Source: Escherichia phage Nernie. From it: DNA of 64,000 bases. The DNA is taken from sequence record PP925835.1. One strand, 5' to 3'. The position numbers and the translations under genes are program-made. How positions within the stretch are numbered: position 1 is the first letter of the stretch; each line of letters starts with the position of its first letter. The notes beneath the pieces were generated by a model. It was not told where the DNA came from. It searched no databases and saw only the letters and a list, made by a program, of their open reading frames with translations. Below, in pieces: positions 44,706 through 47,882 of this stretch.

Positions 44706-45269
44706 ATGATATTTCACATAACTCCCTATCTTTCTGGAGATATTGGAAAAGGTATCAATGACACAATAAGTGTCTTACCAGAAGATAGTTGGATTTGCCT
44801 AAGAGACATTGATACAATGTTTCTTCTTCCAGAACAACCTGCTTGGCTGGAATCAATTGTCCGTTCAAATCCTGATTTTGATGTTCTTGGTGCATCTTGT
44901 AACAGATTGGGATCAACATATCAATTATTTAATAATGAAAGAAGTGAAGATCCGAATATATTACACCACATTGAGATTGCAAAAAGAGCACATCTAGAAT
45001 GGGGAAACTCAATAGAGGAAGTACCTACAGATGCTATCTTAGCAGGATTCTTTCTTCTCTTTCGTAAGAGTCTGTGGAATGAAATTCCTTTTGAGGAAAG
45101 ATCAATACAGTTTGATATAATTTTCTCTAAAGCATTGCACGCTAACAATAAAAGGCTAGGTTTACTACGTGGGTTATATTTATTTCACACATACCGTTTA
45201 GGTAATGATGATCCTAGAAAAGCTGTTTCACACCTTTTACATTGTCAAGACATGAATAAAATTATTTAA
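44706..45269 (+). CDS. hypothetical protein, possible nucleotide-sugar transferase
   Basis: DxD-like RDIDT after an N-terminal beta-strand-like region; weak. Confidence 0.3.
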   Translation: MIFHITPYLSGDIGKGINDTISVLPEDSWICLRDIDTMFLLPEQPAWLESIVRSNPDFDVLGASCNRLGSTYQLFNNERSEDPNILHHIEIAKRAHLEWGNSIEEVPTDAILAGFFLLFRKSLWNEIPFEERSIQFDIIFSKALHANNKRLGLLRGLYLFHTYRLGNDDPRKAVSHLLHCQDMNKII

Positions 45270-45278
45270 GGAGTTATT

Positions 45279-45965
45279 TTGGAAAATACAAAAATTGGTG
45301 TTGGTGTTATTACTGTAGGTAAGCGTCCTCTTAAAGATTATCTTGTAACTGATCCTAATGCTACTTTTGTTGTACAGTATGATCGTGAACGAAAAGGTGT
45401 TGCATATACCCGTAATGAACTGATGAAAAAGTTTTATGATGAAGGGTATGACTACTGGTTTATTTTTGATGATGATTGTTATCCTGTTGTTCCAGGTTGG
45501 GAAACATATTTTGTAAAACAGGCGAAGGAAAATGGTTGGGATTTCTTTGGTATGCCTGAATACTTTAAAGATAAAGTAAAAGGTATTGAAGGAGAAGTGG
45601 TTATTTGGGAGCTAGGCATGTGCCAGTTTGGTATGTATTCCCGTGCAGTTATTGAGAAAGCTGGCTATTTCCGCTCATACACCCACGGTTATGGATATGA
45701 AGATGCAGAGTGGATTCAGCGCGTTCCACTGGCAGGTTTGAACCGAGGTATTCACGGCGTACCATGTCCTATTCGAATTATGGCGTTTATCCATCCTGAC
45801 GATGTGTTTGGAGACAATCCTTTACCTTTTGCGAATCTGTCAAAAGAAGAGAAAGAACAGGGGATTGGTGTAAACTGGGAACAATATAAACAATCACTGG
45901 AGGATCTTCGCAATGGTAAAACTTTTATCTCTTATGAGGAGGCTCAAAAATATGGTAAATCCTAA
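45279..45965 (+). CDS. GT-A-type glycosyltransferase (putative)
   Basis: TTG start after AAGGAG; DxD motif in WFIFDDDCYP preceded by a hydrophobic strand. Confidence 0.5.
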   Translation: MENTKIGVGVITVGKRPLKDYLVTDPNATFVVQYDRERKGVAYTRNELMKKFYDEGYDYWFIFDDDCYPVVPGWETYFVKQAKENGWDFFGMPEYFKDKVKGIEGEVVIWELGMCQFGMYSRAVIEKAGYFRSYTHGYGYEDAEWIQRVPLAGLNRGIHGVPCPIRIMAFIHPDDVFGDNPLPFANLSKEEKEQGIGVNWEQYKQSLEDLRNGKTFISYEEAQKYGKS

Positions 45966-46926
45966 TACTCCTGTACTTAAGTGTGATAATAAGTTAGGCA
46001 GTGGTTGTGATTACCATCGTATTGTAATGCCATTTGCTGGAAATACGTTTAAACCTAAGAAAGACGTTTTAGTTTTTAATAGAGTGTATTCTCGTGGATC
46101 AGACGAAGTTAAACGCCTGAAGGCACAAGGTGTTAAGATTATTGTTGATTTAGATGATTTTTATTCGCTTAATCCTGAACATTATATGGCTGGCGTATTT
46201 ACTAATCACTCAAAGACTATTGTAGAGATGATTAAGTTAGCAGATGTGGTTACTGTAACAACAGAATACCTAGCTTACAAAATTCGTCATTTAAATCGTA
46301 ATGTTGTCGTTATTAGAAACGCACTACCTTACGACGAAGGTCAATTTACTTTGACAAAAGACCGTTATTCTGACACGCCTATTATTTGGGCGGGAGGAGC
46401 AAGCCATGAACCTGATTTATCTCTTGTAGCTAATACATTTGATGATACGCTATTGACAATTGCAGGGTATGAAGTGTATCCTTCTGCACCTGTTGGAAAT
46501 AATAGTCAGTATCTAACTACTGCGGAGTGGGTTAAAGTAAAACGTAAAATTCCAAATGCACAGTATAAACCAGCTATTAAAAATTTAGGTGAGTATATGT
46601 CTGTGTATGACGGTCACAGTATTGCAATTGCTCCTCTGGTAGATAATGACTTCAACAACTGTAAAAGCAATTTGAAGATTTTGGAAGCAGGTGCAAAGGG
46701 TCTTCCTATTATCTGTTCTCCTGTGCTGCCGTACTTCAATCCGGTAGATGCAAAGGCTGTTATCTATGCAGACTCTAAAGCATCTTGGCATTATGAAGTT
46801 GTCAAGCTAATGAGGAACCCTAGATACACAGAAGATCGTGGTATGATGCTTGCAGAACACGTTCGTCTTAATTATAATCTTGCAGATGCCAATGAACTGC
46901 GTCGTCAAGTTATTGAAAGTCTTTAA
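45952..46926 (+). CDS. GT-B-type glycosyltransferase, paralog 1
   Basis: C-terminal LKILEAGAKGLPIICSP resembles the GT1/GT4 lEAmA.G.PvI motif; start at MVNPNT after GAGGAGG. Confidence 0.55.
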   Translation: MVNPNTPVLKCDNKLGSGCDYHRIVMPFAGNTFKPKKDVLVFNRVYSRGSDEVKRLKAQGVKIIVDLDDFYSLNPEHYMAGVFTNHSKTIVEMIKLADVVTVTTEYLAYKIRHLNRNVVVIRNALPYDEGQFTLTKDRYSDTPIIWAGGASHEPDLSLVANTFDDTLLTIAGYEVYPSAPVGNNSQYLTTAEWVKVKRKIPNAQYKPAIKNLGEYMSVYDGHSIAIAPLVDNDFNNCKSNLKILEAGAKGLPIICSPVLPYFNPVDAKAVIYADSKASWHYEVVKLMRNPRYTEDRGMMLAEHVRLNYNLADANELRRQVIESL

Positions 46927-46937
46927 TAAGGAGCTAT

Positions 46938-47882
46938 ATGCCTAATATTATTCTTGACACACGCGGAAATGAAAAGTATAGTGTATGTGATTTTCATAGA
47001 ATCATTTTGCCATATAAACGCAAACTGACCATTAATCCTAAGCATAATATTTTTGTGTTCAATGGAGTACCAACACGTGGAAAGCCAGGTTTCCTGGCTC
47101 TTAAACAACTTGGGTTTAAATTGGTAATGGATCTGGATGATTCTTTAATTATTCCTGAAGGGCATATGCTTGAAGGACTATTTGAAAATCAAATCCGAGA
47201 TGACCTAAAATGGTTCCTTGAAAGAAGCGATCTTGTAACTACAACAACTCCAGCATTAAAGGTTGAATTAAGCCAATACAATGATAATGTACATATTGTG
47301 CCTAACGGATTACCTTTTGATGAAGGACAGTTTGTTCTTACGAAAGACCGTTATTCTAAAAGTCCACTGGTTTGGGCTGGAAGTGAAACACATAAACATG
47401 ATTTAGCAATTCTTCCTGATTTTGGTAAAGATTTAACTTTATGTGGATTTCGTAGAGATCACGAAGAGTTAAGTAGTGCTCAATGGTTGCAAATTAAAGA
47501 AGATATTCAACCAGATTGTGTTTATGAAGGTATTCGTCCTTATGAGTGTTATATGGAAGCATACGATGGTCATCAAATCTCCATAGCTCCGTTAGTAAAT
47601 AATCATTTTAATAATGCCAAAAGTAATTTAAAAATTCTTGAAGCTGGTGCTAAAGGTTTGCCACTCGTTTGTTCACCACGAGAGAACTACTATACTGAAG
47701 AATTTAAAGATCTAATCTTCTTTGCTGATTCAGTTAAAGAGTGGAAAGATATTGTAGAATACTTAATCGAATCTCCTGATGTTTGTATTGAGAAAGGATT
47801 GGCTCTTGCTAAGTATGTAAGAGATAACTACAATATTGATGATTTAAATGAAACCCGCAGACTGCTTATCGAGGATTTATAA
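46938..47882 (+). CDS. GT-B-type glycosyltransferase, paralog 2
   Basis: Shares YDGH.I.IAPLV.N.FNN.KSNLKILEAGAKGLP with the upstream gene. Confidence 0.55.
   Translation: MPNIILDTRGNEKYSVCDFHRIILPYKRKLTINPKHNIFVFNGVPTRGKPGFLALKQLGFKLVMDLDDSLIIPEGHMLEGLFENQIRDDLKWFLERSDLVTTTTPALKVELSQYNDNVHIVPNGLPFDEGQFVLTKDRYSKSPLVWAGSETHKHDLAILPDFGKDLTLCGFRRDHEELSSAQWLQIKEDIQPDCVYEGIRPYECYMEAYDGHQISIAPLVNNHFNNAKSNLKILEAGAKGLPLVCSPRENYYTEEFKDLIFFADSVKEWKDIVEYLIESPDVCIEKGLALAKYVRDNYNIDDLNETRRLLIEDL

Follow-up and report, generated by a model that had tools for sequence, protein, structure and literature searches.

A glycosyltransferase module of phi92-like phages with a possible role in the glycosylation of virion proteins

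Mycobacteriophages of the Che8/Corndog/Myrna type reportedly glycosylate their virions, a system that Freeman and colleagues are said to have described in 2023: soluble cytoplasmic phage glycosyltransferases decorate capsid and tail proteins during lytic growth, and both temperate and lytic phages carry them. Giant viruses glycosylate their capsids and fibrils (PBCV-1 A064R; mimivirus R655/R699) and have their own pathways for rhamnose and other deoxy-sugars. The routes by which phage DNA is known to become glycosylated depend on a hydroxylated base, provided either by a ThyA-family enzyme (5-hydroxymethyl-dC/-dU, 5-hydroxy-dC) or through the action of a TET/JBP dioxygenase on 5-methylcytosine. 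Here we describe four glycosyltransferase genes, A to D, at positions 44706-47882 of a 64,000-nucleotide stretch of Escherichia phage Nernie (PP925835.1), hereafter the window. Three of the gene families involved, A, B and D, form a mobile module, and we tentatively propose, at a probability of about 0.4, that its role is the cytoplasmic glycosylation of phage virion proteins.

The locus differs from the mycobacteriophage systems in that its hosts are Gram-negative and in that the module comprises three families accompanied by a phage Rml pathway. The likeness to giant viruses is at the level of fold only; those eukaryotic viruses use UDP-rhamnose and not rhamnose activated with deoxythymidine diphosphate (dTDP), and we know of no GT-B partner described for the PBCV-1 and mimivirus enzymes. 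Gene D is linked to the cytoplasmic glycosylation of adhesins (TibC/Aah heptosyltransferases, HMW1C, GtfA/Gtf3, SdgB) by gene neighbourhood only.

Four glycosyltransferase genes beside the replication genes

The window comes from a phi92-like myovirus (Justusliebigvirus, Stephanstirmvirinae). Its region 44400-48200 matches 55 phage nucleotide records at 95% identity or more, the best being Escherichia phage Eryne (99.7%), with phi92 itself at 98.9%. Because the window is collinear with Eryne, save for a 947-bp replacement in the tail-fibre gene and a 175-bp gap, the whole Eryne genome (PQ529420) could be used for partner genes outside the window, and all searches for such partners refer to this sister genome. 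Four glycosyltransferases had been annotated at this locus beforehand in GenBank records of phi92-like phages. The cluster is real, conserved and previously recorded; what is new here is the definition of the A/B/D module and the hypothesis of virion glycosylation.

Genes A to D are plus-strand open reading frames (ORFs), separated or overlapped by a few bases and each with its own Shine-Dalgarno sequence. A preliminary description of the window had proposed a glycosyltransferase cluster with a tandem GT-B duplication and a possible fourth enzyme, lying directly upstream of a primase-helicase and a DNA polymerase, and on all these points it holds. All four proteins, the fourth included, match PHROG glycosyltransferase families (E-values 1e-78 to 1e-149), the folds of B and D could be modelled, the primase-helicase and PolA follow directly downstream, and C and D are paralogs with 41% identity and a longest identical run of 15 residues. 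None of the four has a transmembrane segment. A, B and D are acidic (A with an isoelectric point (pI) of 5.6, D strongly so), and C is mildly basic, the sole basic member, with a pI of 8.2 when read from position 45952 and 8.9 from 45913.

Gene A (44706-45269, plus strand) encodes a soluble protein of 187 amino acids (aa) with a DxD motif (RDIDT), matched by phrog_14179 ("glycosyltransferase", 5.5e-113). No Pfam or PDB match was found for it by sequence, and a PDB profile search was also empty. The family alignment has the invariant residues D34, D36, N66, R67, H88, W124, E131, D137, H161, Y163, R164 and H176; judged by these motifs, an invariant DxD together with His, Tyr and Arg as in small metal-dependent GT-A enzymes, A appears to be GT-A-like. 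Gene B (45279-45965, plus strand, TTG start) encodes a GT2-like GT-A glycosyltransferase of 228 aa with invariant R16, D64-D65-D66 and E141-D142. Its AlphaFold model has a GT-A fold with the DxD and a downstream acidic catalytic motif, at a mean predicted local distance difference test score (pLDDT) of 95.4. B itself has no match to PF00535 (Glycos_transf_2) at E-values up to 1. The wider family, sampled as 82 members out of 1489 representative relatives, matches PF00535 at E of 1e-3 or less in 40 of the 82 (best 2.1e-17) and GT7C in 33. Judged from these profiles, B is a divergent relative of GT2 and not a scored Pfam member.

Gene C (45913-46926, plus strand; phrog_7162, 3.7e-149) is the GT-B paralog of D. 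Its true start is probably the ATG at 45952, giving 324 aa, rather than 45913, because GAGGAGG precedes this ATG and homologs are 322-324 aa long. Its Pfam matches, Glyco_trans_1_4 and Glyco_trans_1_2 at 14.7 and 18.1 bits, lie under the cutoffs. Gene D (46938-47882, plus strand), the constant core of the module, encodes a GT4-like GT-B glycosyltransferase of 314 aa that matches Glyco_trans_1_2 at 26.8 bits, above the 25-bit cutoff, and its AlphaFold model shows the two Rossmann domains of the GT-B fold (pLDDT 93.9). The E-x7-E motif of retaining GT4 enzymes is absent from the D family, which has Ala or Cys eight residues before the invariant E235 (LEAG) and an invariant K228-S229 near the position of the missing first Glu; D is therefore GT4-like in fold but atypical. 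C and D were annotated in the BASEL collection as "putative disaccharide synthase".

Direct comparison of A, B and D with PDB chains by sequence gave nothing meaningful, the B profile had no PDB match, and the D family profile returned only weak GT4 matches (e.g. TreT, E 0.011). By structure, the solved proteins closest to D are the Campylobacter Pgl transferases, WbnH, PimA and WaaG, and those closest to B are TarP, TarS, RmlT and GlfT2; the close structural relatives of D also include the small-molecule enzymes BshA, TreT, sucrose-phosphate synthase and tetrahydrobiopterin glucosyltransferase. A BFVD structure search returned only generic viral GT2-like proteins. The preliminary description had suggested comparison with the T4 alpha- and beta-glucosyltransferases. 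About 17 cellular GT4 enzymes match D better than these or the HY126/RB69 arabinosyltransferases do, and the best matches overall belong to polysaccharide, glycolipid and protein-glycosylation families (GT4-like, GT2-like), which is largely the pattern that the same description had named as speaking against a DNA target.

A mobile module and its possible acceptor

Relatives are numerous: IMG/VR holds at least 552 members of the D family, and the B family comprises 1489 representative clusters. Our survey covered 80 IMG/VR loci with a D-family gene, of which 57 have a B-family gene adjacent and 11 contain an A-family gene. Composition varies among large myoviruses, from A and D in Klebsiella phage KP2025 through an epimerase with B and D in L005 to all four genes in phi92- and phAPEC8-like phages. 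The A/B/D module is mobile, travelling jointly in unrelated phages, and most of its carriers show no link to nucleotide metabolism.

Several of these contexts involve virion genes. In an HK97-like phage (L035) the gene order is terminase, portal, S78 prohead protease, major capsid protein, B, D, A, head-tail connector, head completion, tail tube and tape measure; since B, D and A stand between capsid and connector, all three families lie inside the head operon. L029 has the order A-B-D with terminase 1.2 kb downstream. L008, Pseudomonas prophages (L015) and L077 have a GT-A/GT-B pair immediately ahead of their packaging genes, and a Streptomyces Zukovirus has a GT-B homolog with adjacent epimerase and methyltransferase in that same place. 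Within the Pseudomonas prophages a Big_2 protein comes immediately before the homologs of B (hhalign 2.4e-54) and D; on the Burkholderia dolosa and Trinickia chromosomes an inverse-autotransporter invasin carrying Big_1/Big_2 domains is followed by a D homolog. A protein of about 560 aa between invasin and D homolog in Trinickia was considered as a further member and rejected, being unrelated to the B and D family profiles, the only ones compared.

The window itself encodes a lateral tail fibre with a Big_2 Ig-like domain (56365-59193, minus strand; Pfam Big_2 9.7e-14), which is a candidate acceptor. The 947-bp replacement, the sole large difference from Eryne, lies at 56363-57309 and covers the distal end, i.e. 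the C-terminal part, of this fibre, whose length is 942 aa here and in EmilieFrey and 628 aa in Eryne, as would fit an exchange of the receptor-binding module.

A likely source of donor sugar lies elsewhere in the genome. RmlB, RmlC and RmlD are encoded in Eryne at 114.3-117.0 kb, outside the window and about 70 kb from the transferases (Pfam 2.5e-81, 3.2e-72 and 1.6e-73). Of RmlA there is no more than a C-terminal fragment, which is fused to RmlB (NTP_transferase profile positions 159-243 of 245). The fusion protein, dTDP-glucose 4,6-dehydratase of 436 aa (Eryne 115716-117026; L004 5717-7027, minus strand), matches the last third of the RmlA profile, and nothing else of it, in its C-terminal 85 or so residues, a piece that is either a remnant or a regulatory dTDP-sugar-binding element. 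Olsen et al. noted the dTDP-rhamnose pathway in these phages and called it a "complete pathway"; as a full RmlA is lacking, this is not quite borne out, and host RmlA (RfbA or RffH) would be needed. RmlC and the GT-B gene occur in nearly the same phage genomes (Justusliebigvirus, Phapecoctavirus and KP2025-like Klebsiella phages), and the GT-B homolog of three further lineages has a sugar-nucleotide epimerase or dehydratase beside it. The donor is likely a 6-deoxyhexose.

Taking together the folds and families of the enzymes, the Rml genes, how mobile the module is and where it occurs, the absence of enzymes that hydroxylate bases, and the sensitivity to restriction described below, we infer a donor, an acceptor and an order of steps as follows. 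A to D would be soluble cytoplasmic enzymes that jointly build a short glycan on a non-DNA acceptor, drawing on dTDP-L-rhamnose made by phage RmlB, RmlC and RmlD from host dTDP-glucose, and on host nucleotide sugars. The most likely acceptor would be one or more phage structural proteins, with fibres or decoration proteins carrying Ig-like domains as candidates. One enzyme may place the initial sugar on the protein and the remaining ones lengthen the chain, to which the C/D duplication would add one more linkage in the phi92 and phAPEC8 lineages. The co-occurrence with Rml genes, the adjacent epimerases, the positions in the head operon and before packaging genes, the Big-domain neighbours and the Big_2 tail fibre all point in this direction.

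Alternative acceptors

The preliminary description favoured glycosylation of DNA bases as protection against restriction and had recognised no hydroxymethylase. The latter observation extends to the sister genome: Eryne encodes no ThyA-type hydroxymethylase or hydroxylase and its sole thymidylate synthase is ThyX (PF02511, 4.2e-09). In ThyA homologs, the residues diagnostic of dCMP hydroxymethylase/5-hydroxy-dCMP synthase are N177D, L143D/E and D169N (PMC13326640); Eryne ThyX gives no meaningful alignment with E. coli ThyA. The gene annotated as "thymidylate synthase" (Eryne 122582-123553; L004 12583-13554, minus strand) encodes this flavin-dependent ThyX of 323 aa with a long C-terminal extension, and it adjoins genes for an NT5C-like nucleotidase and a thymidine kinase. 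A Pfam scan of the 43 unannotated non-structural Eryne ORFs of at least 130 aa, drawn from outside the structural region at 1-22 kb, found no TET/JBP or 2-oxoglutarate dioxygenase; Serglycin matches in the concatenated-ORF scan were an artefact of Gly-Ser linkers. Eryne does have a C5-cytosine methyltransferase, and such a gene is near the module in 13 of the 80 IMG/VR loci. A methyltransferase-TET-transferase pathway, considered on account of those loci, was rejected: in L077 the intervening genes encode VRR-NUC, a PAPS-reductase-like protein and a hexapeptide acetyltransferase, and no dioxygenase. A ThyA homolog lies within the flanks in two of the 80.

Restriction data bear on the same question. 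BASEL describes phi92-like phages as "exceptionally susceptible" to restriction-modification "despite ... a putative dTDP glycosylation machinery". In its raw plating data EmilieFrey (Bas61), 98.7% identical to the window over this region, reaches 2.7e7 on the vector control and forms no plaques on EcoRI, EcoRV or EcoP1I hosts. The window holds 11 EcoRI, 24 EcoRV and 39 EcoP1I sites, and because EmilieFrey is fully restricted by these enzymes, whose sites together contain all four bases, no base can be globally replaced by a bulky restriction-blocking adduct. With restriction complete and no base-hydroxylating enzyme found, the favoured reading of the preliminary description is not supported, and its hedge that the target might not be DNA fits the evidence better.

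Glycosylation of the DNA at sparse sites defined by sequence, or of an acceptor that arises by an unconventional route, is in our view improbable. The position of the genes is the one positive point for it. Besides the empty searches for an acceptor-making enzyme and the exclusion of bulk base replacement, the acidity of A, B and D speaks against it, as does the fact that the module is found within a head operon and in small phages of temperate type. The T4, HY126 and RB69 enzymes differ from those studied here, where there is no hydroxymethylcytosine or 5-hydroxycytosine synthase, the phage is restriction-sensitive and D is strongly acidic. B does resemble TAGT (PF20691) and the trypanosome JGT in its GT-A fold with R...DDD...ED residues and in a weak TAGT match confined to residues 16-75, but this match scores 21.8 bits against a gathering cutoff of 27.5 and no TET/JBP partner was found. 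Over the 82 relatives, 14 match TAGT weakly (best 1.6e-5) against 40 for GT2, so that the lead of B as a TAGT-type DNA transferase gave way to a general GT2/GT7C affiliation. A published list of phage genomes that encode DNA-type GT-A enzymes has no phi92-like phage in it, and literature searches for DNA modification in this subfamily found nothing.

Another explanation, unlikely in our view, is that the enzymes remodel the host envelope, adding rhamnose or other sugars to lipid-linked lipopolysaccharide (LPS) core, O-antigen or enterobacterial common antigen (ECA) intermediates at the cytoplasmic face of the inner membrane. The altered receptor on infected or lysogenic cells would bring superinfection exclusion, less trapping of progeny or, in temperate carriers, serotype conversion. 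The nearest solved structures of D and B are of exactly this enzyme type, prophages and moron-like positions are among the places where the module occurs, dTDP-rhamnose is a classic O-antigen donor, and ECA synthesis and the Rml pathway have dTDP-4-keto-6-deoxyglucose as a common intermediate. The "disaccharide synthase" label of C and D would also fit, and phi92-like phages need ECA and LPS core, forming no plaques on wecB, rfaC or rfaG mutants (BASEL). The module, however, comes without membrane components (flippase, bactoprenol transferase, polymerase), as do A to D without transmembrane segments; a virulent phage with a short latent period would probably gain little from altering new envelope glycans, and strictly virulent 145-kb phages retain the module along with a dedicated Rml pathway. 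Nor does a role at the envelope predict adjacency to Ig-like domains or a position in the head operon. Somewhat less probable still is an acceptor of another kind: a host protein (in takeover, toxin-type or EarP-type), RNA such as a tRNA base, or a small molecule, possibly a product of the Ter, PRTase and HAD genes. Here one may cite the small-molecule enzymes among the structural relatives of D, the 13 tRNAs encoded by Eryne and the Ter-type cluster that lies 2-10 kb upstream on the same strand in large myoviruses, including Klebsiella phage KP2025. Against this, most lineages carry the module without Ter genes, and no specific pointer to any of these acceptors was found.

Glycosylation of virion proteins is preferred because it is the sole role that would seem sensible in temperate-type siphophages, prophages and strictly virulent 145-kb myoviruses alike. 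Several observations weigh against it. In the window, A to D belong to the replication operon and not to a late one; genes inserted between capsid and connector could just as well represent a moron that acts on the surface of the host; the link to Ig-like-domain neighbours comes from two independent lineages only; and the co-occurrence from which a rhamnose donor is deduced in part reflects shared ancestry. Literature searches, with the 2012 phi92 proteome/cryo-EM paper outside their scope, returned no report of a glycosylated virion protein in phi92-like phages. One context also hints at nucleotide or DNA chemistry and would suit a role on DNA: in a phage-like Acetivibrio metagenome-assembled contig (L019, 371-10739), a D-family GT-B and a second group-1 GT-B stand amid a dATP/dGTP diphosphohydrolase-NT5C fusion, MazG, class II ribonucleotide reductase, RecA and a resolvase.

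Neighbouring genes and wider meaning

Upstream of the transferases, on the plus strand at 33358-42700, this virulent phage carries a complete set of Ter-type stress-response genes: HAD phosphatase (about 33358-34014), ComF-like phosphoribosyltransferase (PRTase_3, about 34007-34864), macro domain (about 34839-35573), the membrane protein TerC (about 36131-37108), TelA (38887-39990), a vWA-TerF-like protein (41237-42031) and TerD (42104-42700). The set is syntenic in Klebsiella phage KP2025, and Pharokka mislabels several of its members ("Zot-like toxin", "HNH endonuclease"). The preliminary suggestion that these genes might provide a precursor has found no support: most other carriers of the module lack them, nothing indicates that they supply the transferases, and the donor pathway that co-occurs with the module, RmlBCD, lies elsewhere.

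Between D and the primase-helicase lies a gene for an acidic protein of 89 aa (47882-48151, plus strand; phrog_4240). It was considered as a partner of the module and rejected, its synteny being confined to large myoviruses (Klebsiella phage KP2025 with 49% identity, L005 with a weak match); small phages with the module lack it, and it is probably not part of the module. The primase-helicase (48164-49936, plus strand; Pfam Toprim_2 1e-10, DnaB_C 7.4e-16) follows after a 13-nt gap. A scan for promoters and terminators gave counts at background, with terminators not above shuffled sequence. GC-rich hairpins followed by T-rich tracts are seen at 42710-42725, after TerD, and at 55172-55191, after an SSB-like gene, and may bracket one long transcription unit of hydrolase, four transferases, primase-helicase and PolA. 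The hydrolase (43448-43957, plus strand) is a SleB-type cell-wall enzyme (Pfam Hydrolase_2, 6.5e-20) with an N-terminal hydrophobic signal-like segment, located within the replication-gene block, far from the lysis genes; a second "endolysin" is encoded elsewhere in Eryne.

A few further annotations deserve mention. The gene labelled "DNA methyltransferase" at about 14650-16400 (minus strand; Eryne 74230-75975) encodes a NADAR-domain protein (7e-35), and its neighbour, labelled "endonuclease", has four CapR-homology repeats and a T5orf172 domain; the two may relate to ADP-ribosylation or anti-defence. Paralogous AAA ATPases of about 380 aa are encoded at 31790-32950 (plus strand) and at about 16480-17600 (minus strand), with near-identical Walker regions (GVLLEGTKGSGKT vs. 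GLLLTGTKGSGKT); one adjoins anaerobic ribonucleotide reductase genes and the other lies in the early region. Five "Campylobacter phage" records (host C. jejuni; MG065645, MG065689, MG065656 and others) have D and RmlC proteins 99-100% identical to those of E. coli Justusliebigvirus phages (tblastn) and are probably mislabelled, or their phages were grown on a contaminating host.

The standing view in the literature, that DNA is the target of the "dTDP glycosylation machinery" in these phages, is at odds with their extreme sensitivity to restriction and their lack of a base-hydroxylating enzyme. The three-family transferase module is now defined and can be searched for and tested across phage diversity. 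It is conceivable, if rather doubtful, that phi92-like and phAPEC8-like coliphages, together with many uncultured carriers of A, B and D, decorate their own virions with an oligosaccharide that contains rhamnose and is made by phage enzymes alone. If this is true, virion glycosylation would be a widespread feature in phages that infect Gram-negative bacteria, and not something peculiar to actinobacteriophages. With their very broad host ranges, phi92-like and phAPEC8-like phages are therapeutic candidates, and a phage-made glycan could alter antibody and immune recognition, clearance, stability, adsorption and host range of phages that are already in therapeutic use, and would offer a new handle for engineering.

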